Positions 6,765 to 35,272 of a stretch of DNA of 64,000 nucleotides are shown piece after piece. The position numbers and the translations under genes are program-made. The stretch comes from Ilumatobacteraceae bacterium (GTDB lineage: Bacteria > Actinomycetota > Acidimicrobiia > Acidimicrobiales > Ilumatobacteraceae), in assembly GCA_965279405.1 (NCBI GenBank), contig OZ257157.1:3568865-3632864 (forward strand), read 5' to 3'. The number at the start of each line of letters is the position of its first letter. Within the stretch, counting starts at the first letter, position 1. The notes below the pieces were generated by a model. That model did not search any database. It was not told the DNA's origin and saw nothing but the letters and a program-made list of their open reading frames with translations.

Positions 6765-8144
6765 GTGACAGACGTGTTCGGGACCGACGCCGAGGAGATG
6801 CGTCGGGTGGGATACCGCATCGTCGATGCGGTGGTCGATCACGTCAGCGGCATCGATGCCATCCCCGCGCTCCGCGTCGGCGATCCCGACACGCTCGCCG
6901 ACCTCCTCGGCCGCGGCGAGCCACCGATCGCAGGATCGTCGATCGACGTGGCCATCGAGGTGGTCGTCCGTGAGGTGATGAGCACCATGCAGCACGGTGA
7001 CCATCCCCGCTACTTCGCGCGCGTGCCGGGTCCGTCATCGTTCACCGGGATCGCCGGCGACTGGTTGGCGACCGGCTTCAACGCCATCGCGTCGTCGTGG
7101 GGCGGGGGAGCGGGGCCGAGTGCCGTCGAGCTGGTCGTGCTCGACTGGCTGCGCCAGTGGATGGGCCTGCCGGACGGCACCGAAGGGATCATGCTCAGCG
7201 GCGGATCGATCGCCAACCTGACGGCGCTGTCCGTGGCTCGTGACGCGGTCGGACCCGGCGTCGTCTACTTCAGCGACCAGACGCACAGCTGCGTCCCGAA
7301 GGCGTTGCGCATGCTGCGCGTGCCCTCGGACCACCAGCACCTGATCGACACCGGGACGAAGCTGCGGTTGACGGCAGACGCACTCGTCGGCGCGATCGCC
7401 GCCGATCGTACCGCCGGACGAGTGCCATCGGTGGTGGTGGCAACCGCGGGGAGCACGAACACGGGCGCAGTCGACGAGCTGACCGCGATCGCTGAGATCG
7501 CCGCCGACGAGGGCATGTGGCTGCACGTCGATGGTGCCTACGGCGGCCCGACGCGGCTGACCGAGACCGGTGCCGCCGCGCTGGCCGGCATCGAGCTTGC
7601 GGACTCGTTGGTGATCGATCCGCACAAGTGGCTGTTCCAGCCCTACGACGTCGCCTGCCTCCTCGTCCGCCGGCCGGGCGCCTTGGCGAGCAGCTTCACG
7701 CTGAACCCGGAGTACCTCGCCGACGTGGTCGCCGACGAGGTCGGCGAGATCGACCTGCGCAATCGCGGGCCAGAGCTGACCCGTCGGGCCCGAGCGATCA
7801 AGCTGTGGCTGACGATCGTCACGCACGGCACCGACGCGATCGCGCACCTGGTGCAACGCGGGATCGACCTCGCCGAGCACGCTGAAGGTCTGCTCCGGGG
7901 TGATCCGAGCTGGATCGTCGTCACCGAAGCCGAGCTCGGCATCGTCACCTTCGTTCGGCGCGGCGTCGACGACGAGGGTCACGTGCGCGCTGCTCGGAGC
8001 GTCACCGACGGTGGGTTTGCTGCTGTGACCTGCACCAAGCTGAACGCGCGCCAGGTGCTGCGGCTGTGCACGATCAACCCGCGAACCACCGAATCGGACG
8101 TCGCCGCCACGCTCGCAGCTCTGGCTGCAGCATGTGACGTCTGA
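6765..8144 (+). CDS. Pyridoxal-dependent (group II, aromatic-amino-acid type) decarboxylase
   Basis: HPRYFARVPG, SGGSIANLTAL, LHVDGAYGG and the PLP-lysine motif SLVIDPHKWLFQPYDVACLLVR. Confidence 0.85.
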   Translation: MTDVFGTDAEEMRRVGYRIVDAVVDHVSGIDAIPALRVGDPDTLADLLGRGEPPIAGSSIDVAIEVVVREVMSTMQHGDHPRYFARVPGPSSFTGIAGDWLATGFNAIASSWGGGAGPSAVELVVLDWLRQWMGLPDGTEGIMLSGGSIANLTALSVARDAVGPGVVYFSDQTHSCVPKALRMLRVPSDHQHLIDTGTKLRLTADALVGAIAADRTAGRVPSVVVATAGSTNTGAVDELTAIAEIAADEGMWLHVDGAYGGPTRLTETGAAALAGIELADSLVIDPHKWLFQPYDVACLLVRRPGALASSFTLNPEYLADVVADEVGEIDLRNRGPELTRRARAIKLWLTIVTHGTDAIAHLVQRGIDLAEHAEGLLRGDPSWIVVTEAELGIVTFVRRGVDDEGHVRAARSVTDGGFAAVTCTKLNARQVLRLCTINPRTTESDVAATLAALAAACDV

Positions 8145-10135: not shown

Positions 10136-11515
10136 ATGACAGCAGGGCGCATCCACATCTCACGCACCGACCTCGAGGGCCGCATCCGCAGCGGCGAGAT
10201 CGACACCGTCCTGATGGTCTTCCCCGACCTGCAGGGTCGGCTCACGGGCAAGCGCACCACCGGTCGCTTCTTCCTCGAGCAGGTGGCCGACGACGGCACG
10301 GAGAACTGCGACTACCTGATCGCCTGCGACATGGACAACAACCCGGTCCCCGGGTACCGCTGGGCCAGCTACGAGCAGGGCTACGGCGACATGCTCGCTC
10401 GCGCCGACTGGGACACGGTGCGCATCATCCCGTGGGTGCAGGGCACAGCGATGATCATGTGCGACCTGTTCGACGTGGACACCGGTGAGCTCGTCGAGGT
10501 CGCGCCGCGCACGATGCTTCGCCGTCAGGTCGAAGCCGCCGAGGCACTCGGGTTCCTGCCGATGGTGGCCAGCGAGATCGAGTTCTACCTGTTCCACGAC
10601 ACCTACGACGAGGCTCACGCCAAGGGCTACCGCGACCTGCGTCCGCACTCGCCGTGGCTCGAGGACTACCACATCCTGCAGACGACGAAGGACGAGGTCA
10701 TCCTCGGTCAGATCCGTCGTGGTCTCGAAGCGGCGGGCGTGCCGGTGGAGTTCTCGAAGGGCGAGGCGGGCCGCGGACAGCACGAGATCAACCTCGACTA
10801 CACGACCGCCGTCGAGATGGCCGACCGCAACAGCGTGTACAAGACGGCGGCCAAGGAGATCGCTCACCTCAACGGCAAGTCGGTGAGCTTCATGGCCAAG
10901 TACGACTTCAACGACACCGGTTCGTCGTGCCACATCCACTCCAGCCTGTGGAGCCTCGACGGTGCGAAGGCCCAGTTCGACGATCACCACGGCGAGCACG
11001 GGATGAGCAAGACCTTCCGCCACTACCTCGCCGGGCAGATCGCCACGGCGCGCGAGTTCAGCCTGCTGTGGGCGCCGACAGTCAACAGCTACAAGCGATT
11101 CCAGCTCGGTTCGTGGGCGCCGACCGGTGTCGGCTGGGGCATCGACAACCGCACGCTCGGCTTCCGCAAGGTCGGCCACGGCAAGGGAACGCGCGTCGAG
11201 TGCCGCATCCCCGGCAGCGACGCCAACAGCTACTTCGCCTTCGCCGGCACGATCGCCGGCGGGCTGCACGGCATCCGCAACGAGCTCGAGCTCGGAGCGC
11301 CGTTCTCGGGCAACGGCTACGAAGCGCCCGACATCGAGCGCATCCCGTGGAACCTGCCTGACGCGATCGCGTTGTGGGAGGGCTCAGCCGTCGCCAAGGA
11401 GTGCTTCGGCGACGATGTGCACCACCACATCCTGACGATGGCCAAGGCCGAGTGGCAGGCCTCCAACCAAGCCGTCACCGACTGGGAGCTCCGCCGCTAC
11501 TGGGAACGAATCTAG
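10136..11515 (+). CDS. Glutamine synthetase family protein (GlnA3/GlnA4-like, possibly a gamma-glutamyl-amine synthetase)
   Basis: GS catalytic-domain motifs: KGEAGRGQHEINL, SSCHIHSSLW, NSYKRF and ECRIPGSDANSYF. Confidence 0.85.
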   Translation: MTAGRIHISRTDLEGRIRSGEIDTVLMVFPDLQGRLTGKRTTGRFFLEQVADDGTENCDYLIACDMDNNPVPGYRWASYEQGYGDMLARADWDTVRIIPWVQGTAMIMCDLFDVDTGELVEVAPRTMLRRQVEAAEALGFLPMVASEIEFYLFHDTYDEAHAKGYRDLRPHSPWLEDYHILQTTKDEVILGQIRRGLEAAGVPVEFSKGEAGRGQHEINLDYTTAVEMADRNSVYKTAAKEIAHLNGKSVSFMAKYDFNDTGSSCHIHSSLWSLDGAKAQFDDHHGEHGMSKTFRHYLAGQIATAREFSLLWAPTVNSYKRFQLGSWAPTGVGWGIDNRTLGFRKVGHGKGTRVECRIPGSDANSYFAFAGTIAGGLHGIRNELELGAPFSGNGYEAPDIERIPWNLPDAIALWEGSAVAKECFGDDVHHHILTMAKAEWQASNQAVTDWELRRYWERI

Positions 11516-12222
11516 AGACGGATCTCCAGCAGGACGGGGAGGTGGTCGCTGAGGGCGTGCCATTGATCGCCGCCATCGGGGGTGGCGCGGTCGAGCACCT
11601 CGGCGTTGGGTGGGACGAGCACGTAGTCCAGACGTTGGTTCGGAGCGATCGACGGGTTGGTGAACACGCCACCCGGATCGCTGAGGCCGGTGAACTCCCG
11701 GATCACCTCGATGGCGTCGTCCTTCACGTTGAGGTCACCGGCCAGCACGACCGGTGACCCGGTGTCGCCTTCGATGCGCAGCGCGATGCGCGCCGCCTGG
11801 GCGATGCGTTCGTCGGCGTCGTGCGAGGCGAGGTGGGTGTCGTAGAGCCGCAGCGAGTCGTCGCCACGTCGCGCCGTCGCGGCGACCATGACGCGGTGGC
11901 GGTAGGTCCAGGTGCTGACGCCGGGGCTGATCGTCGCCTTCACGATCGAGCTCAGCGGGTGCGGCGACAGGATCGCCAACCCCTCCGCCCTCCACCACAG
12001 CAACGGGGTGTACGGGTAGTGCTTGCGCGCCCAGCAGACCTGGAACTGCAACCGCTTGGCCAACGCTCGCGCCTGGTTGCGCCGCACCTCCTGCAGGGCG
12101 ACGACGTCGGCGTCGTAGCCGTGAATGACCTCGGCCACGACCGTCAGGTTCGGGTCCTTGGCGCCGAGGACGTTCCACGTGAGGATGCGCCACGTTGCGC
12201 CAACGCGCGGGCTGCTCGTCAT
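11512..12222 (-). CDS. Endonuclease/exonuclease/phosphatase (EEP) family protein
   Basis: WRILTWNVLG, VVALQEV, GDLNV, and C-terminal LSDHLPVLLEI with the catalytic His. Confidence 0.8.
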   Translation of the reverse strand: MTSSPRVGATWRILTWNVLGAKDPNLTVVAEVIHGYDADVVALQEVRRNQARALAKRLQFQVCWARKHYPYTPLLWWRAEGLAILSPHPLSSIVKATISPGVSTWTYRHRVMVAATARRGDDSLRLYDTHLASHDADERIAQAARIALRIEGDTGSPVVLAGDLNVKDDAIEVIREFTGLSDPGGVFTNPSIAPNQRLDYVLVPPNAEVLDRATPDGGDQWHALSDHLPVLLEIRL

Positions 12223-29455: not shown

Positions 29456-30364
29456 ATGGGAGTCATGGCGCGGGTTCGGATGCATGCGGACGAGGTGGAG
29501 ACGAGCCCTGCGCTCGTGCGCGCCTTGCTCACGGACCAGTTCCCGCAGTGGGCGGAGCTGCCCATCGAGCTGGTGGACTCCTACGGCACGGATCACGACA
29601 TCTACCGAGTCGGTGATCACCTTGCGGCTCGCTTGCCTCGCATCGGATGGGCGACGAGGCAGGCGGCGAAGGAAGCAGTGTGGCTGCCGAGGCTCGCTCC
29701 ACATCTGCCGCTCGCCGTGCCGGTGCCACTGGCGATGGGTGCTCCCGGGAACGGCTACCCGTTCGACTGGTCGGTGTGCGAGTGGCTGCCCGGCGTGAAC
29801 GCCAACGACAGCATCGACGGCCTCGACCGAGCAGCACGTGACCTCGGTGCGTTCATCATCGCCTTGCGACGGATCGACACCGCAGACGCACCGCGACGGC
29901 GGAAGCACGCTCGAGGTGGTCCGCTGATCGAGAGCGACGAGCAGGTACGCGCGTCCATCGCCGAGCTCCGTGATCGCGTCGACGCTGCCGCAACGCTGCG
30001 CGAGTGGCAACGCGCACTCGACGCACCGACGTGGGACGGTGACGAGGTGTGGGTGCACGGCGACCTCCTCCCGGGCAACCTGCTCGTCGTCGACGGCCGG
30101 CTATCGGCGGTCATCGACTTCGGTGGGCTCAACGTCGGCGACCCGGCGTGCGACCTCCAGCCGGCGTGGAACGTGTTCACCGGCGCCAGCCGAGAGCGGT
30201 TCCGCACAGAGCTCGACGTCGACGATGCGTCGTGGCAGCGCGGCCGCGGCTGGGCCCTGGCGCAAGCGGTGAACGCGCTGCCGTACTACTGGGACACCAA
30301 CCCGGGCATCGTGCGCCAGGCTCAGCACGCGCTCGAGCAACTGCTGAGTCAGCCGAAGGGCTGA
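29456..30364 (+). CDS. Aminoglycoside phosphotransferase (APH) family protein
   Basis: ORF 29324..30364. LVRALLTDQFPQWAELPIELV...GTDHDIYRVG, VWVHGDLLPGNLLV and IDFGGLNVGDPACDL. The start is uncertain: ATG 29456, 29465 or 29480. Confidence 0.8.
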   Translation: MGVMARVRMHADEVETSPALVRALLTDQFPQWAELPIELVDSYGTDHDIYRVGDHLAARLPRIGWATRQAAKEAVWLPRLAPHLPLAVPVPLAMGAPGNGYPFDWSVCEWLPGVNANDSIDGLDRAARDLGAFIIALRRIDTADAPRRRKHARGGPLIESDEQVRASIAELRDRVDAAATLREWQRALDAPTWDGDEVWVHGDLLPGNLLVVDGRLSAVIDFGGLNVGDPACDLQPAWNVFTGASRERFRTELDVDDASWQRGRGWALAQAVNALPYYWDTNPGIVRQAQHALEQLLSQPKG

Positions 30365-30732
30365 TCCATCACGCAGAATTCGTTGCCCTCGGGGTCGGCC
30401 AGCGTCGTCCATCGATCGAGCACCTGCAGGACCGTCGCGCCAAGCGCGGTCAGCCGAACGACTTCGGCATCGCGGTCGGCGGCGCCCACGTCGAGGTGCA
30501 TCCGGTTCTTCGAACGCTTCGTTTCATCGACCTGTTGGAAGCACACCGACGGTCCGGGCCCGTCGACCATCACGATCGGGTCGGTGTCCGGCGTGAGCCC
30601 GAGCGAGCCGAGGCGAGCGACCTCGGCGTCGTCGTACCCTCGCACCGCATAGCCGTCGAGCACCTCCGCCCAGAACCGTGCCAGTGACGGCGCGTGCTCG
30701 CAGTCGACCACGATCTCGACGATCTTGCCCAT
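30349..30732 (-). CDS. VOC/glyoxalase-like family protein (127 aa)
   Basis: This is the C-terminal part of ORF 30349..31383, starting at ATG 30732. MGKIVEIVVDCEHAPSLARFWAEVLDGY...RMHLDVGAAD...LADPEGNEFCV. Confidence 0.75.
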   Translation of the reverse strand: MGKIVEIVVDCEHAPSLARFWAEVLDGYAVRGYDDAEVARLGSLGLTPDTDPIVMVDGPGPSVCFQQVDETKRSKNRMHLDVGAADRDAEVVRLTALGATVLQVLDRWTTLADPEGNEFCVMDQPFG

Positions 30733-30749: not shown

Positions 30750-31652
30750 CTACGAGCGTGCAGGAACCAGGGATTCGATGGCGGTCACCGCGCTGCGCGC
30801 ATCTTCTGCCCACAGGTCGGCGTCGAGCACGGCGGCGGTCTGTGGGTTGAGGACCGCCTGGCCGCCGACGATCACCGGCACGGACGGCATCTCGGCGCGG
30901 ATGGCAGCGATCGTGAGTCGAGCCTCGTCGACGTGCTCGATGCTGGTGATCCCCAGCCCGACGGCCACCAACCGCGTCGCCGCTGATGCTGCGGCAGCGA
31001 ACGCCTCGGGCGGGGTGTCGGCGCCGAGCTCCAGCACATCGAAGCCGGCGAAGCGCAACACGTCGGCGACGATCGCGATCGGCAACACGTGTCGCTCGCC
31101 GCTCGGCGCTCCGAACACGACGCAGCCGCGGCTGCGGCCTGGGCGGCGGAACCGGGCCCCGAGCCGGCTGATCAACCGGTACGCAACTGCGGTGGCCAAC
31201 GGCTGCCGCGCCGCGTCGAGCGAACCCGCCGCTCGCTGCTGATCGATCAGCGCAACCGCCGCGCCGATCACGTCGATCGAGCAGAACGCCGCGTCGTGAC
31301 CGCTGGCCAAGGCGCGCTCGATCAGCGCCCATGCGGTGGCCTCGTCGCCGGCCAGCAGGGGAGTGACGAGTCGCGCCGCCCAATCCGTGCGATCACCGGC
31401 GTCGACCGGCACGTCATCGGCGAGGAAGGATGCGATGTCGCGCTCCAGCACTCGCCATGCCGTGCCGTCGCGCTCGGCGGGCAAACGGCCCTGGCGCACG
31501 TAGCGGTAGGCGGTCATGTAGTGGACCCCGAGCTTGGTCGCTGCCTGCTTCAGGTTCAGGCTCGCTTCCGGGTCGTCGGGGGGCACCCGGGGCACCGTAG
31601 CGGGAGCGTCCGGACGCGCGCGCGGACCATCGATTAGCACCCAATCGAGCAA
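30750..31652 (-). CDS. HTH (excisionase/MerR-superfamily type) plus cobalamin-binding domain transcription regulator
   Basis: N-terminal LNLKQAATKLGVHYMTAYRYVRQGRLPAERDGTAWRV. C-terminal Rossmann-like B12-binding domain GCVVFGAPSGERHVLPIAIVADVLRFAGFDVLELGADTP...VPVIVGGQAV, with His in the DxHxxG-equivalent position. Confidence 0.75.
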   Translation of the reverse strand: MLDWVLIDGPRARPDAPATVPRVPPDDPEASLNLKQAATKLGVHYMTAYRYVRQGRLPAERDGTAWRVLERDIASFLADDVPVDAGDRTDWAARLVTPLLAGDEATAWALIERALASGHDAAFCSIDVIGAAVALIDQQRAAGSLDAARQPLATAVAYRLISRLGARFRRPGRSRGCVVFGAPSGERHVLPIAIVADVLRFAGFDVLELGADTPPEAFAAAASAATRLVAVGLGITSIEHVDEARLTIAAIRAEMPSVPVIVGGQAVLNPQTAAVLDADLWAEDARSAVTAIESLVPARS

Positions 31653-31691
31653 GTTGCACCGAGGTACTTACCGTGCTGTAGTTCGTGCTCC

Positions 31692-31739
31692 CCACAACAT
31701 GCTGCGTGCCCGGTTGGGAGCGACCCCCACATCTTGGGG
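31692..31739. promoter_or_regulatory. Candidate tandem NrdR boxes upstream of nrdA
   Basis: Box 1 (31692-31707) CCACAACATGCTGCGT matches 11/16 of the remembered consensus acaCwAtATaTwGtgt. Box 2 (31724-31739) CCCCCACATCTTGGGG(T) is weaker, about 9/16. The centres are about 32 bp apart, as is typical for NrdR box pairs. Confidence 0.3.
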
Positions 31740-31769
31740 TCGACCGGTCACTCGATTGGAGCGACCGCG

Positions 31770-34196
31770 ATGACGTTGACGGAAGAGAACCCGCAGGCAA
31801 CACGTGACGAAACACGTGACGAGACCCCGTGGGGACTGGCCAGTCCGATGCGCGTCCGCAAGCGCAACGGCGGCCTCGAACCGGTCGATCTGACCAAGAT
31901 CGTGCGGGCCGTCGGCAGGGCCGCGAGGGGTCTCGACGGGGTCGATCCGATGCGCGTCGCCACTCGCACGATCAGCGGCCTCCACGACGGCGCGACGACC
32001 ATGGAGCTCGACGAGCTGAGCATCCGCACGTCGGCGGCGCTCGTCAGCCTCGAGCCGAACTACAGCCGCCTCGCCGCCCGTCTGCTGTCGGCCTTCGTCA
32101 ACAAGGAGGTGGCCAACCAGGACATCCACTCGTTCTCGCAATCGGTCGCCTCCGGTCACCGCAGCGGGATCATCGCCGACGCAACGGCCGAGCTCGTCGC
32201 CCGCAACGCGCGCAAGCTCAATGAAGCCATCGAGACCGAGCGCGACCAACTGTTCGAGTACTTCGGACTACGCACCGTCTACGACCGCTACCTCCTGCGC
32301 GACCCCGAGGGTCGCCTCGTCGTCGAGACGCCGCAGTACTTCTTCCTGCGCGTCGCGTGCGGACTGGCGACGAGCGCTGAAGAGGCGATCGAGCTCTACC
32401 GGCTGATCTCTTCGCTCGACTACATGCCGGCCACGCCGACGCTCTTCAACAGCGGCACGACCCACCCGCAGATGTCGAGCTGCTACCTGCTCGACTCGCC
32501 AGAGGACACGCTCGAAGCGGTCTACGACCGGTACAAGGACGTCGCCCGCCTCTCCAAGTTCGCCGGTGGCATCGGCCTCGCCTTCCACCGCATCCGCAGC
32601 CGTGGCTCGCTGATCCGCGGCACCAACGGGCTCTCCAACGGCATCGTGCCGTGGCTGAAGACGCTCGACTCGTCCGTCTCCGCCGTCAACCAGGGCGGCA
32701 AGCGCAAGGGCGCGGCGTGCGTCTACCTGGAGAGCTGGCACGCCGACATCGAGGAGTTCCTCGAGCTGCGCGACAACACCGGCGACGAGGCTCGACGCAC
32801 CCACAACCTCAACCTGGCCAACTGGGTACCCGACCTGTTCATGGAGCGCGTCGAGAAGGACTGGACGTGGTCGCTGTTCGACCCGAAGAAGGTGCCGCAC
32901 CTGACCGACCTGTTCGGTGAGGAGTTCGAGCGGGCCTACGTCGAGGCAGAGTCGCAGCACCTCTACGAGCGTCAGGTCCCCGCACGCCAGCTCTACTCGC
33001 GGATGATGCGCACCCTGGCGCAGACCGGCAACGGCTGGATGACGTTCAAGGACGCATCGAACAAGCGCTGCAACCAGACCGGCGTCGAGGGCACCGTGCA
33101 CCTCTCCAACCTGTGCACCGAGATCATCGAGGTGACCAGCGCGTCGGAGACGGCGGTGTGCAACCTCGGCTCCCTCAATCTCGGCAGGTTCGTCGACGAT
33201 GGCGCGTTCGACTTCGAGCGCCTCGGCGAGGTGGTCCGCACCGCGGTGCGGTACCTCGACCGCGTCATCGACATCAACTTCTACCCGACCGACGAAGCGG
33301 CGTCCTCGAACCGGCGTTGGCGTCCGGTCGGCCTCGGCGTGATGGGCCTGCAGGACGTGTTCTTCCGCATGCGCCTCCCGTTCGATTCGCCCGAGGCTCG
33401 CGACCTCTCGAAGCGCATCGCCGAGGAGATCTACTTCCACGCGCTGTGGACGTCCAGCGAGCTCGCCGAGGCGAGCGGCGCGCACGCCGCCTACCCGCTC
33501 ACCCGCGCCGCGGGAGGTGCGCTGCAGTTCGACCTCGCCGGCGTCGCACCGACCGACGCGCCTCGTTGGCAGCCGCTGCGCGACCGCGTTGCCCAGCACG
33601 GCTTGCGCAACTCGCTGCTGATCGCCATCGCACCGACCGCGACGATCGCCTCCATCTGCGGCGCCTACGAGTGCATCGAGCCGCAGGTGTCGAACCTGTT
33701 CAAGCGCGAGACGCTCTCCGGCGAGTTCATGCAGATCAACTCGTACCTCGTCCGCGACCTGCAAGCCCGCGACCTCTGGGACGACGACATGCGCGACGCG
33801 ATCAAGCGCGCCGAGGGCTCGGTGCAGGACATCGCCGCCGTGCCCGACGAGATGAAGGAGCTCTACCGAACGGCGTGGGAGATCCCGATGCGGTCGCTGA
33901 TCGACATGGCCGCCGACCGGGGCGCGTTCATCGATCAGAGCCAGTCGCTGAACCTCTTCGTCGAGTCGCCCTCGATCGGCAAGCTCTCCTCGATGTACCT
34001 CCACGCATGGAAGCAGGGTCTGAAGACCACGTACTACCTGCGCTCGCGACCGGCGACGCGCATCACGCAGACCAACTCCGCTCCCGCGCCGACGCCTGAG
34101 GCGACGGTCACCGACATCGTCAGCGCGACCGACGCAGACGCTGACGCCGTCGCCTGCTCGCTGGAGAACCCCGGCACGTGCGAGGTGTGCACCTGA
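31770..34196 (+). CDS. nrdA: Class I ribonucleoside-diphosphate reductase alpha subunit (with an N-terminal ATP-cone-like segment)
   Basis: ORF 31734..34196, with the start placed at ATG 31770, which has GGAG 8 nt upstream. VRKRNGGLEPVDLTKIVRAV, PATPTLFNSGT, SSCYLL, NLCTEI and a C-terminal CSLENPGTCEVC Cys pair. Confidence 0.9.
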   Translation: MTLTEENPQATRDETRDETPWGLASPMRVRKRNGGLEPVDLTKIVRAVGRAARGLDGVDPMRVATRTISGLHDGATTMELDELSIRTSAALVSLEPNYSRLAARLLSAFVNKEVANQDIHSFSQSVASGHRSGIIADATAELVARNARKLNEAIETERDQLFEYFGLRTVYDRYLLRDPEGRLVVETPQYFFLRVACGLATSAEEAIELYRLISSLDYMPATPTLFNSGTTHPQMSSCYLLDSPEDTLEAVYDRYKDVARLSKFAGGIGLAFHRIRSRGSLIRGTNGLSNGIVPWLKTLDSSVSAVNQGGKRKGAACVYLESWHADIEEFLELRDNTGDEARRTHNLNLANWVPDLFMERVEKDWTWSLFDPKKVPHLTDLFGEEFERAYVEAESQHLYERQVPARQLYSRMMRTLAQTGNGWMTFKDASNKRCNQTGVEGTVHLSNLCTEIIEVTSASETAVCNLGSLNLGRFVDDGAFDFERLGEVVRTAVRYLDRVIDINFYPTDEAASSNRRWRPVGLGVMGLQDVFFRMRLPFDSPEARDLSKRIAEEIYFHALWTSSELAEASGAHAAYPLTRAAGGALQFDLAGVAPTDAPRWQPLRDRVAQHGLRNSLLIAIAPTATIASICGAYECIEPQVSNLFKRETLSGEFMQINSYLVRDLQARDLWDDDMRDAIKRAEGSVQDIAAVPDEMKELYRTAWEIPMRSLIDMAADRGAFIDQSQSLNLFVESPSIGKLSSMYLHAWKQGLKTTYYLRSRPATRITQTNSAPAPTPEATVTDIVSATDADADAVACSLENPGTCEVCT

Positions 34197-35272
34197 TGTC
34201 CGCGCTCGCCAGCGACCTCCAACCGATCATCACTGCGCCGGCGACGCCGCCCGCCGCAGCTCCGACTCGTCGGGCCATCCTCGATCCGGGTCTCGACCTC
34301 ACCCTGCGACCGATGCGCTACCCGGAGTTCTACGACCGCTACCGCCAGGCGATCAAGAACACCTGGACCGTCGAGGAGATCGACTTCTCCGACGACCTCG
34401 TCGACCTGCGCAACACGCTGCTGCCGGCGGAGCGCCACCTCGTCAGTCGTCTCGTCGCGTTCTTCGCCACCGGCGACTCGATCGTCTCCAACAACCTGGT
34501 CCTCAACCTGTACCAGCACATCAATGCGCCAGAGGCCCGGCTCTTCCTCTCCCGCCAATTGTTCGAGGAGGCCGTCCACGTCCAGTTCTACCTGACCCTG
34601 CTGGACACCTACCTGCCCGACCCCGACGAGCGCGCCGCCGCGTTCGACGCGATCGAGAGCATTCCCTCGATCCGCGCCAAGGCGGAGTTCTGCTTCCGAT
34701 GGATGGACTCGATCAGCGGTCTGCGCGAGCTGCGCACCGCCGACGACCGGCGCACGTTCCTGCTCAACCTGATCTGCTTCGCCGCGTGCATCGAGGGCCT
34801 GTTCTTCTTCGGCGCGTTCGCCTACGTCTACTTCCTTCGCTCGAAGGGGCTCCTCAACGGGCTCGCCGCCGGAACCAACTGGGTGTTCCGCGACGAGAGC
34901 GGTCACATGGAGTTCGCCTTCGCCGTCATCGACACCGTGCGTCGCGAGGAGCCCGAGCTGTTCGACGACGAGCTGCGCGCCCAGGTCGTGGCGATGATGG
35001 AGGACGCCGTGCGCACCGAGATGCTGTTCGTCGAGGACATGCTCAGCGACGGCGTGCCCGGCCTGTCGCCGACCGACACGCGTGAGTACCTGCAGTACGT
35101 CGCCGACCAACGCCTGGTCCGGTTGGGCATGGGCAAGCGCTTCAACAGCCGCAACCCGTTCGGCTTCATGGAGCTGCAGGACGTGCAGGAGCTCTCCAAC
35201 TTCTTCGAGCGCACCGTCAGCGCCTATCAGGTCGGTATCACCGGCGAGGTCTCGTTCGACCACGAGTTCTGA
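34196..35272 (+). CDS. nrdB: Class I ribonucleoside-diphosphate reductase beta subunit
   Basis: ORF 34178..35272, with ATG 34196 overlapping the nrdA TGA. Metal-ligand motifs EEAVHVQFY, CIEGLFFF and RDESGHMEF. Confidence 0.9.
   Translation: MSALASDLQPIITAPATPPAAAPTRRAILDPGLDLTLRPMRYPEFYDRYRQAIKNTWTVEEIDFSDDLVDLRNTLLPAERHLVSRLVAFFATGDSIVSNNLVLNLYQHINAPEARLFLSRQLFEEAVHVQFYLTLLDTYLPDPDERAAAFDAIESIPSIRAKAEFCFRWMDSISGLRELRTADDRRTFLLNLICFAACIEGLFFFGAFAYVYFLRSKGLLNGLAAGTNWVFRDESGHMEFAFAVIDTVRREEPELFDDELRAQVVAMMEDAVRTEMLFVEDMLSDGVPGLSPTDTREYLQYVADQRLVRLGMGKRFNSRNPFGFMELQDVQELSNFFERTVSAYQVGITGEVSFDHEF

Follow-up and report, generated by a model that had tools for sequence, protein, structure and literature searches.

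The stretch of Ilumatobacteraceae DNA analysed here (64,000 nt, hereafter the window) carries a regulator gene that is divergent from the class I ribonucleotide reductase genes nrdA and nrdB. The nrdA gene (31770..34196, plus strand) encodes the alpha subunit with an ATP-cone, and its product matched the ATP-cone, Ribonuc_red_lgN and Ribonuc_red_lgC domains (PF03477, PF00317 and PF02867) as well as TIGR02506 at 727 bits, while nrdB (34178..35272, plus strand) encodes the beta subunit (PF00268, E 1.6e-78). The regulator is encoded on the minus strand (30750..31595), with 281 aa from GTG 31595 and a frame that is open up to TTG 31652 (300 aa). The original prediction had taken the longer form, separated from nrdA by 117 nt. 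That figure is correct from TTG 31652 to ATG 31770, but the start was probably placed too far upstream. Because the public annotation gives a 281-aa protein (99% identical, P0001) and a conserved DNA site at 31634-31645 falls within codons 3-6 of the 300-aa frame, the true start is probably GTG 31595, and the gap to nrdA would therefore be 174 nt. Homologs in the alignment begin 10-25 residues ahead of the LNLKQ motif. Residues are numbered below on the 300-aa frame. The other B12-linked genes claimed for the window were confirmed as mutA, mutB, meaB and a cobA-like TP_methylase gene. In the genome as a whole, nrdJ, nrdR (167 bits) and metH were present and metE was absent, no paralog of the regulator was found, and the sole cobalamin-riboswitch-like element precedes a btuF-like gene. 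A glyoxalase-like gene downstream of the regulator was not kept beside any of the 80 homolog loci.

The domain architecture read from the translation, an HTH joined to a B12-binding domain, was borne out by Pfam with both matches above the cut-offs. The DNA-binding domain (31419..31559, minus strand; residues 32-78) is an excisionase/MerR-like winged helix of the HTH_17 type (PF12728, E 1.9e-10). In NCBIfam the excisionase domain TIGR01764 was matched, and partial matches were obtained to excisionase-type HTH, corrinoid-protein and CarH-like models. The stretch LNLKQ..HYMTxYRYVRxG was invariant across the regulator family. The C-terminal part is a Rossmann-type B12-binding domain (30789..31121, minus strand; residues 178-288; PF02310, E 7.2e-12), and between the two lies the four-helix bundle, or cap, of the cobalamin-binding domain (31149..31382, minus strand; residues 91-168), which was delimited by alignment and by the DSSP helices of an AF2 model (91-100, 104-116, 121-141 and 149-168). 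The best PDB matches of this model in Foldseek were the cobalamin-binding domains of photocobilin, CtMerR and CarH. The candidate lower axial ligand, His188 (codon 31089-31091), stands in G-E-R-H188-V-L-P, an instance of G-E-R-H-x-L-P, and the GG motif of the B12-binding domain is at residues 263-264; G185, E186, H188, D197, G263 and G264 were invariant in the homolog alignment. The predicted conservation of the His ligand was thus found throughout the close homologs, with E-x-H kept in 121/121, the EH of the cap in only 3/121 and the Trp in 35/121. The W-x9-EH motif was likewise absent from the window protein as foreseen: in the alignment to 8jbs and 8j2w, both with EH, R140 occupies the CarH Trp position and Q150-P151 the Glu-His position. 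This motif, given as W-x9-EH or as GxxW and EH, was defined as the light signature in PMC11796333 and PMC8156234.

The putative nrdA promoter (31654..31682, plus strand) consists of the -35 element TTGCAC (31654-31659), a 17-nt spacer and the -10 element TGTAGT (31677-31682). Its assignment rests on conservation among relatives, in all of which TTGnnn-N17/18-TGTA(G/A)T was conserved at nrdA, and is supported by the layout in two of them (L016 and L027), where the -10 element is only 9 nt before the ATG and the mRNA would be near-leaderless. A consensus promoter scan called no promoter at nrdA, since the -10 element has G at position 2. The predicted operator TTAGCACCCAAT (12 bp, 31634..31645, plus strand) occupies about -55 to -44, with exactly 20 bp between it and the downstream -35 element of nrdA. 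The strict motif TTAG[CT][AG]C[CT]NAA[AT] gave a single match in the 5.26-Mb genome, at 31634-31645. A simple repressor would rarely bind at such a position, off both the -35 and the -10 elements, and an activator would account for it no less well. A second operator at nrdJ, as in a reciprocal switch, was rejected, the strict motif being single in the genome and absent upstream of nrdJ. A 9-nt inverted repeat (31641-31649 / 31751-31759) was treated as chance; its left arm consists of the operator's right end with some flanking sequence, and no counterpart was seen in aligned relatives. Just past the predicted transcription start, two palindromes were read from the sequence (31692..31739, plus strand; about 31692-31708 and 31725-31739) with their centres about 31-32 bp apart. 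They are NrdR-box-like, as judged against the consensus rather than by a model score, and similar boxes (ACCACATCTTGTGGT) were present upstream of nrdJ in the same genome and of nrdA in relatives. Tandem boxes at the promoter, in a genome that also has nrdR, give the locus the features of the NrdR regulon.

The regulator family tree was divided into two clades with 100/100 support, and the window protein, with its intact E-x-H and non-EH cap, was placed inside clade A. EH was absent in 22/23 rows of clade A, and W-x9-EH was present in 57/57 rows of clade B, none of which was linked to nrdAB. Among the loci fetched, 16 of the 23 clade-A members were found beside nrdAB, and all 16 nrdAB-linked loci belonged to clade A. 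The adjacency survived rearrangement, with divergent, convergent and co-directional layouts, and it also holds in the nearest relative within the Ilumatobacteraceae that has a long contig. Other neighbours of clade-A genes were metE, mutA-mutB-meaB and genes of an ECF CbiQ/ABC transporter, and nrdJ was held by at least 15 of 17 clade-A genomes. The clade-A subclade ‘ER’ (L019, L021) showed no nrdAB linkage, and the L074 protein has lost the lower His (GARQ). The palindromic operators of clade B overlap the -10 element of light-type genes, comprising heliorhodopsin, carotenoid and isoprenoid genes and ECF sigma factors. Clade B is apparently an uncharacterised family of CarH-like photoreceptors; its operator is clear, and heliorhodopsin is part of its regulon. 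A candidate clade-B operator, TTTAGCACTAAA, was seen upstream of heliorhodopsin or ECF sigma genes.

A TTAGYRCYNAAW site in register with the -35 element of nrdA or metE, which marks clade A, was found in the window and was followed across relatives. The site precedes nrdA in 19/20 genomes with a clade-A regulator and in 0/12 Acidimicrobiia genomes that have nrdA without such a regulator; the Fisher test, computed on 18/19 vs 0/12, gave p = 9e-8 in a sample that consists mostly of MAGs and whose counts are not phylogenetically independent. The nrdA of G007 has no such site. The spacing from site to -35 was 20 bp in 17/19 site-bearing nrdA promoters of clade-A genomes, and at the nrdA of G034 it was 30 bp with helical phase preserved, a feature typical of activators. 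The site also precedes metE in L002, L008 and L074. In L074 one site lies between the divergent nrdA and metE, and at the metE of L002 the distance from the motif to the -10 element is about 54 bp. In the 1 kb upstream of clade-B regulator genes, a palindromic version of the site showed an enrichment of about 15-fold, linking this kind of motif to the regulator family.

No riboswitch motif had been recognised in the nrdA spacer, and the Rfam search agreed: at gathering score the window contained nothing apart from one tRNA, with no match to the RF00174 or RF01689 aptamer. No cobalamin riboswitch was detected at nrdA at gathering score in the clade-A loci searched or at E <= 0.1 in 14 further nrdA leaders. 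A riboswitch in the nrdA leader was ruled out, none being found in the window, relatives or control genomes. The idea that the protein replaces the riboswitch everywhere was ruled out as well by the metE genes of L002 and L074, at which the site and a full cobalamin riboswitch occur together; the protein is thus no simple riboswitch replacement. In one member (L032) an AdoCbl-II riboswitch lies ahead of the regulator gene itself.

Among characterised proteins, the closest solved structures were the photocobilin and CtMerR domains (PDB 8j2w, 8j2y and 8jbs), both by sequence (E 5e-13 to 1e-10) and by fold (rmsd 1.9 A over 204 columns, 32% identity). They have the G-E-x-H-x-L-P lower-ligand motif in common with the regulator, but differ in having the EH light signature and output domains of other kinds (PMC11796333, PMC10979010), whereas the window protein has QP and an HTH output. 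CarH/LitR of Thermus thermophilus, Myxococcus xanthus and Bacillus megaterium (PDB 5c8d/5c8e) resemble it in the cobalamin domain, a four-helix bundle followed by a Rossmann fold, and in the lower axial His within E/D-x-H-x-x-G/P; the full-length model aligned with CarH over about 285 columns in Foldseek, and the sister clade B keeps W-x9-EH and has operators over the core promoters of light-type genes. The differences lie in the absence of W-x9-EH from the window protein, in the conserved site, which is upstream of the -35 element, and in the targets, which are carotenoid or photolyase genes for CarH/LitR and would be nrdAB (metE in relatives) for the regulator. CarH/LitR also have a MerR domain, whereas the regulator scored as HTH_17/excisionase in Pfam; HTH_17 and MerR are related winged helices, and full-length CarH aligned over the N-terminus with high rmsd. 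CarH/LitR proteins form AdoCbl-dependent tetramers, which are bound to DNA in the dark and dissociate in light. CarA of Myxococcus xanthus is a CarH paralog without W-x9-EH that binds B12 and acts independently of it (PMC8156234). It shares with the regulator the CarH type, the lost adenosyl cap motif and the retained canonical B12-binding motif, and its operator is anchored upstream (-70) and reaches over the -35 element (PMC8156234). In contrast, CarA is relieved by the antirepressor CarS and governs carotenogenesis, whereas the predicted regulon here is B12-related and no CarS-like partner was evident. The SCHIC-type antirepressors AerR/PpaA of purple bacteria (PDB 7te2; TM 0.73 on target) are likewise B12-binding regulators without the CarH adenosyl cap, but have no DNA-binding domain, act through CrtJ and govern photosynthesis genes.

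Cobalamin riboswitches have the same targets as those predicted here. Borovok and coworkers reportedly described one in 2006 upstream of class Ia nrdAB in Streptomyces, and Rodionov and coworkers are said to have described them in 2003 upstream of metE in many bacteria. The logic would also be the same, the B12-independent isozymes being off when B12 permits the use of NrdJ and MetH. The riboswitch is RNA and the regulator is protein, and both coexist at the metE of L002 and L074.

The best reading of these comparisons is that a lineage of CarH-like photoreceptors may have been converted to a cobalamin sensor for B12-independent isozymes. The comparative evidence indicates that the regulator would switch nrdAB, and metE in relatives, according to B12 supply. 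The protein-based switch at nrdAB, which the original prediction had proposed, was supported by the presence of nrdJ and nrdR, by the synteny, by the co-occurrence of site and regulator (19/20 vs 0/12) and by the metE sites, and all computational checks suggested along with it turned out favourably. We hold it fairly probable that the clade-A regulator is a cobalamin-dependent switch acting on the nrdAB promoter via TTAGCACCCAAT; binding of the protein to the site, cobalamin as the effector and the sign of control are what we infer. A wider formulation is put forward tentatively, with its prospects a little short of even: a cap-less B12 photoreceptor lineage may have become a light-independent cobalamin sensor that controls nrdAB and metE from upstream of the -35 element. 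Such a sensor would be the protein equivalent of the cobalamin riboswitch and might be the first activator under B12 control.

In the proposed mechanism the regulator would be a CarH-like protein composed of an HTH_17 winged helix, a four-helix cap and a Rossmann cobalamin-binding domain. Clade A would have kept the His-on cobalamin pocket and lost the W-x9-EH cap, the part that holds the adenosyl group and makes CarH a light sensor. The protein would recognise its site in fixed register with the -35 element, and its sole target in its own genome would be the promoter of the divergent nrdAB operon. When cobalamin is present, the B12-dependent class II enzyme NrdJ would work and the regulator would lower nrdAB transcription; when cobalamin is scarce, nrdAB would be expressed, with NrdR still acting through the two boxes past the start site. 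CarA/CarH large operators are anchored upstream and cover the -35 element (PMC8156234). By analogy with these operators (about -70 to -19), the most likely route is that a cobalamin-loaded oligomer would anchor on the upstream site, spread over the -35 element and block RNA polymerase.

The main alternative, activation by the apo-form from -50, would have the same physiological output with the opposite molecular sign. The apo-protein (or one cobalamin form) at about -50 would bring RNA polymerase to PnrdA (in relatives also to PmetE), and cobalamin would change its oligomeric state and end activation. This scheme is credible though unlikely. It is favoured by a site that is always upstream of the -35 element and never on the core promoter, by the helical phase kept among spacings (20 bp in 17 promoters, 30 bp in G034, about 54 bp for the L002 metE), by the single L074 site that serves both divergent genes, and by the clade-B operators on the -10 element, from which the geometry would have shifted along with the regulon. 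However, all characterised CarH, LitR and CarA proteins repress (PMC8156234), and the -35 hexamers are good (TTGACA, TTGCAC) and equally good in genomes without the regulator; such near-consensus elements in promoters with and without the site alike argue against a strict need for an activator. The quality of the -35 element as such does not discriminate repression from activation.

Since CarA binds B12 without needing it, the motif loss here could also mean B12-independent action, and the W-x9-EH said to define B12-dependent CarH homologs is missing from both (PMC8156234). The protein would then be a local nrdAB regulator that has abandoned the cobalamin signal, with the B12 domain serving dimerisation and the signal coming from a partner protein, redox state or nucleotide status. 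The L074 protein without the lower His is in line with this idea, which is nevertheless improbable. E-x-H and GG were invariant in 121/121 close homologs, whereas the cap residues vary without constraint, as would be expected under continued selection for His-on corrin binding. In addition, the inferred targets are exactly the B12-independent isozymes, the neighbours include B12 enzymes and a Cbi-type ECF transporter, and L032 follows an AdoCbl-II riboswitch. It is quite improbable that the regulator is an ordinary CarH/LitR-type light sensor and that nrdAB is light-regulated because light destroys AdoCbl. JGI labels several homologs ‘light-induced transcriptional regulator’, the sister clade has the full light signature with a light-type regulon, and any Co-C cobalamin is photolabile, but the GxxW and EH signature (PMC11796333) is absent in the window protein and 22/23 clade-A members, and in this genome the only operator is the one at nrdAB and light-type targets are lacking. 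That the TTAGCAC site belongs to another factor (as half of a CIRCE for HrcA or as a promoter part) while the B12-binding regulator acts elsewhere is barely credible: TTAGCACTC is identical to the CIRCE left arm and the genome contains several true CIRCE-like copies, but the N9-GAGTGCTAA inverted partner is absent, which together with a phyletic pattern that tracks the regulator ruled out the CIRCE/HrcA reading, clade-B regulator genes have the palindromic form immediately upstream, and the genome offers the regulator no alternative candidate site.

Switching between B12-dependent and B12-independent isozymes (NrdJ/NrdAB, MetH/MetE) is a textbook task of riboswitches, and to our knowledge it has so far been known only from RNA. 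The protein sensors of B12 described so far mostly sense light (CarH/LitR, AerR). A full-text literature search yielded no description of an HTH_17/B12-binding regulator acting on nrdAB or metE; the architecture appears only as an entry in domain surveys (PMC8717448). If the cobalamin-sensor reading is true, the B12 isozyme switch would have evolved twice, in RNA and in protein, and a photoreceptor would have turned into a metabolite sensor by losing three cap residues and shifting its operator. If the activator scheme is true, it would be the first B12-controlled activator of the cobalamin-domain family. A light-insensitive, B12-responsive switch would also be available for synthetic biology. 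Acidimicrobiia are abundant members of soil, marine and freshwater communities in which B12 is traded, and such a sensor would explain the control of their sporadic class I reductase.

The Pfam search of the regulator placed HTH_17 at residues 32-78 and the B12-binding domain at residues 178-288, both over the cut-offs and as the original prediction had read them, while NCBIfam returned an excisionase-type HTH and partial corrinoid-protein and CarH matches. The AlphaFold2 model, computed from 22 homologs (mean pLDDT 88), placed a four-helix bundle at residues 91-168, between a winged HTH and a Rossmann fold. The closest structures were cobalamin-binding domains, those of photocobilins (8j2w: rmsd 1.9 Å, 32% identity) and CtMerR (8jbs); full-length CarH (5c8d/5c8e) and AerR ranked next. 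The lower-ligand motif G-E-R-H188-x-L-P was present, and the W-x9-EH positions of CarH were occupied by R140 and Q150-P151, so the conserved His ligand and the missing motif noticed earlier were both borne out. The 300-aa ORF of that prediction does exist (30750-31652, minus strand, TTG start), but a 281-aa version beginning at GTG 31595, which matches the public gene call, is more likely because the conserved DNA site falls within codons 3-6 of the long ORF. A Glyoxalase_6 (VOC) gene (30349-30720, minus strand) follows the regulator in the same orientation, 29 nt past its stop, and the two may be co-transcribed; the pairing is local, since a VOC gene adjoined none of the 80 homolog loci.

The genes divergent from the regulator were class I nrdA (with an ATP-cone) and nrdB, and mutA, mutB, meaB and a cobA-like methylase gene were found in the window, all as previously described. 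The Rfam search of the whole window gave a single tRNA and otherwise no match, in agreement with the predicted lack of a riboswitch near nrdA. Among the best 80 genome loci encoding a regulator homolog, nrdAB adjoined the regulator in 15, of which nine were divergent as in the window, three convergent, one downstream and one upstream on the same strand, and one divergent at 2.7 kb. The divergent layout was also seen in P0005, a close relative from the protein collection (64% identity). This adjacency survives rearrangement, which is good evidence of a functional link.

The intergenic regions upstream of nrdA were aligned by eye and shared one layout: TTAGCACYCAAW, exactly 8 nt, a -35-like TTGnnn, 17-18 nt and TGTA(G/A)T. 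In the window this layout corresponds to a predicted operator at 31634-31645, a -35 at 31654-31659 and a -10 at 31677-31682 (all plus strand), with two NrdR-box-like palindromes downstream of the -10 (about 31692-31708 and 31725-31739). Two relatives (L016 and L027) lend this promoter independent support: in both, the same -10 lies 9 nt upstream of the nrdA ATG and gives a near-leaderless mRNA. In convergent loci the site stayed with nrdA and not with the regulator gene, and in one genome (G002) it was present although regulator and nrdA were unlinked. The pattern TTAG[CT][AG]C[CT]NAA[AT] had one match in the whole 5.26-Mb genome, at nrdA. A further element, GTAGTTnCAC-N4-TGTAAT(TAC), was conserved in the promoter spacer and -10 (31660-31682); it was common to Acidimicrobiia nrdA promoters with or without the regulator (L101, L102, L105, L085) and was also seen in the nrdJ promoter of the same genome (about C1:4901300, L081; GTGTAGTTACAGTGCTGTAAT), and might mark either an unusual class of promoter or a third-factor site common to both reductases. 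A 9-nt inverted repeat (31641-31649 / 31751-31759) joins the right end and flank of the operator to a right arm abutting the nrdA Shine-Dalgarno, and no counterpart was seen in the relatives' intergenic regions.

The connection between this site and the regulator family was evaluated in two ways. Homologs at 41-46% identity had a perfect palindrome of the same kind as the site, TTTAG(CA/TG)CTAAA, immediately before the regulator gene or its operon; relative to the remainder of those loci, it was enriched about 15-fold in the first 1 kb upstream. Among 121 evenly drawn Acidimicrobiia genomes, class I nrdAB was sporadic (14 genomes), and a family member occurred in 39, about a third. In one of the 13 others with nrdA (G034), the regulator (57% identical) and nrdA were divergent and the site was present at 30-bp spacing; in the remainder the regulator homolog was a distant EH-type or none. 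The site was found at nrdA in none of the 11 of these genomes whose upstream region was read, G127 being left out as its nrdA match begins at contig base 7. With G019, G007 and L122 added to this sample, the site was present in 19 of 20 nrdA promoters of genomes with a regulator of the window's clade (clade A), compared to 0 of 12 without; it was missing at nrdA in G019 and in G007, a member of the 'ER' subclade of clade A. Fisher's test on the earlier counts of 18/19 and 0/12 gave p = 9e-8, which is only indicative because the counts are not phylogenetically independent. Palindrome enrichment and the phyletic test both tie the predicted operator to the regulator family. In G002 and G016 nrdA was in pieces, reflecting inteins or long-read frameshifts.

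The maximum-likelihood tree of 80 proteins split the family into clade A (23 rows, among them the window protein and all nrdAB-linked members) and clade B (57 rows), with branch support of 100/100. In 22 of the 23 clade-A rows, the EH position read QP, QY, QH, EY, QF, ER or a similar pair. Counted over the window protein and its best 120 protein matches (identity of 50% or more), E-x-H was retained in 121/121, the Trp in 35/121 and EH in 3/121; judged from these alignments, the corrin-binding His is under selection and the adenosyl cap is not. The predicted site also preceded metE in L002, L008 and L074, the last with one site between divergent nrdA and metE. Clade-A neighbours included mutA-mutB-meaB in the window, L002 and L009, and an ECF CbiQ/ABC transporter in L002, L007 and L011; of 17 clade-A genomes, at least 15 also contained nrdJ. 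At metE of L002 (1434-1649) and L074 (4213-4431), the TTAGC(A/G)C site, some 45-50 bp upstream, was accompanied by a full cobalamin riboswitch scoring 110 and 104 bits, respectively, so there the protein would add to the RNA switch rather than replace it, which points to two layers of B12 control, the protein acting at initiation and the RNA in the leader. In L032 an AdoCbl-II riboswitch (6823-6917, 42 bits) lay between nrdB and the same-strand clade-A regulator gene, directly upstream of the latter; a B12-binding transcription factor thus appears to be itself under B12 riboswitch control. The 'ER' subclade (L019, L021) had no nrdAB linkage. The L074 regulator (match 6788-7615) sits on a long branch; its lower axial His is gone (G-A-R-Q), its cap position reads EH within a shifted context, and the copy may be decaying or independent of B12. 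These riboswitches at metE and at the regulator gene, the 'ER' subclade, the missing site at G007 nrdA and the lost His of L074 all sit awkwardly with the proposed switch. An unannotated 369-aa ORF divergent from nrdA in L016 is a candidate for a further regulon member: it is preceded, at 11290-11560, by a second TTAGCGCTGAAA site as well as a weak cobalamin riboswitch (31.9 bits).

W-x9-EH was present in all 57 clade-B rows. The clade-B palindrome preceded genes for heliorhodopsin, RPE65-type carotenoid oxygenase, IspH, and ECF and sigma-70 factors, as well as amine-oxidase/SRPBCC/SDR clusters and a DUF2867 protein gene, and the predicted regulon is light-type (loci in point: L020, L023, L039, L046, L047, L064-L067, L071). 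It lay between -35 and -10 with its right half as the -10, for example TTGACG-N9-TTTAGTGC-TAAAAA, by its placement the classical repressor position. Clade B appears to be a so far uncharacterised family of CarH-like photoreceptors that carry HTH_17. Class I nrdAB was absent in 13 of 14 genomes having only a clade-B regulator.

The published light signature of cobalamin domains comprises GxxW, EH, GxxH and GxxxP (PMC11796333). According to PMC8156234, CarH homologs are defined by W-x9-EH, and lack of this motif explains the B12-independent action of CarA. The window regulator is a relative of CarH/LitR by architecture but fails this defining test, and therefore was not filed as a CarH photoreceptor. 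CarA is a warning that a CarH relative without the cap can work without B12. In Streptomyces, nrdAB is controlled by a cobalamin riboswitch; the targets and logic are the same as those proposed here, whereas the molecule differs. A full-text literature search turned up no account of nrdAB or metE being controlled by an HTH_17/cobalamin-domain protein, and the architecture is merely listed in domain surveys (PMC8717448). The original observation was confirmed, and the proposed reading of the protein as a B12-dependent switch of nrdAB is supported by independent comparative evidence.

The clade-A site was upstream of the -35 in every case. From site start to -35 there were 20 bp in 17 promoters, against 30 bp in G034; the site lay about 54 bp from the -10 at L002 metE and 43 bp at nrdA. 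The -35 hexamers were near consensus in promoters with and without the site, a similarity that favours neither repression nor activation. For repression, the site would be an anchor nucleating a cobalamin-dependent oligomer that covers the -35, with a precedent in the CarA/CarH operator, which reaches from -70 to -19 (PMC8156234). An activator at about -50 in helical register with RNA polymerase would fit this geometry as well. Repression is moderately the likelier of the two, since all characterised relatives are repressors. Under either model, the simplest output would be less nrdAB when cobalamin is available.

The window genome is a single contig of 5.26 Mb, and its relatives are Acidimicrobiia (Ilumatobacteraceae, Iamiaceae and similar). 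It contained one copy of the regulator, one class I nrdAB and full-length metH, and the suggested genome check found both nrdJ (one, class II) and nrdR; the search for metE gave no full-length copy. The sole cobalamin-riboswitch-like element of the genome (C1:3284972-3285039, L084), at 29.3 bits just below the Rfam gathering score, stands before a btuF-like substrate-binding lipoprotein gene and is probably a real but divergent riboswitch. From this gene content, B12 would serve NrdJ, MetH and methylmalonyl-CoA mutase, and the only B12-independent backup would be NrdAB.
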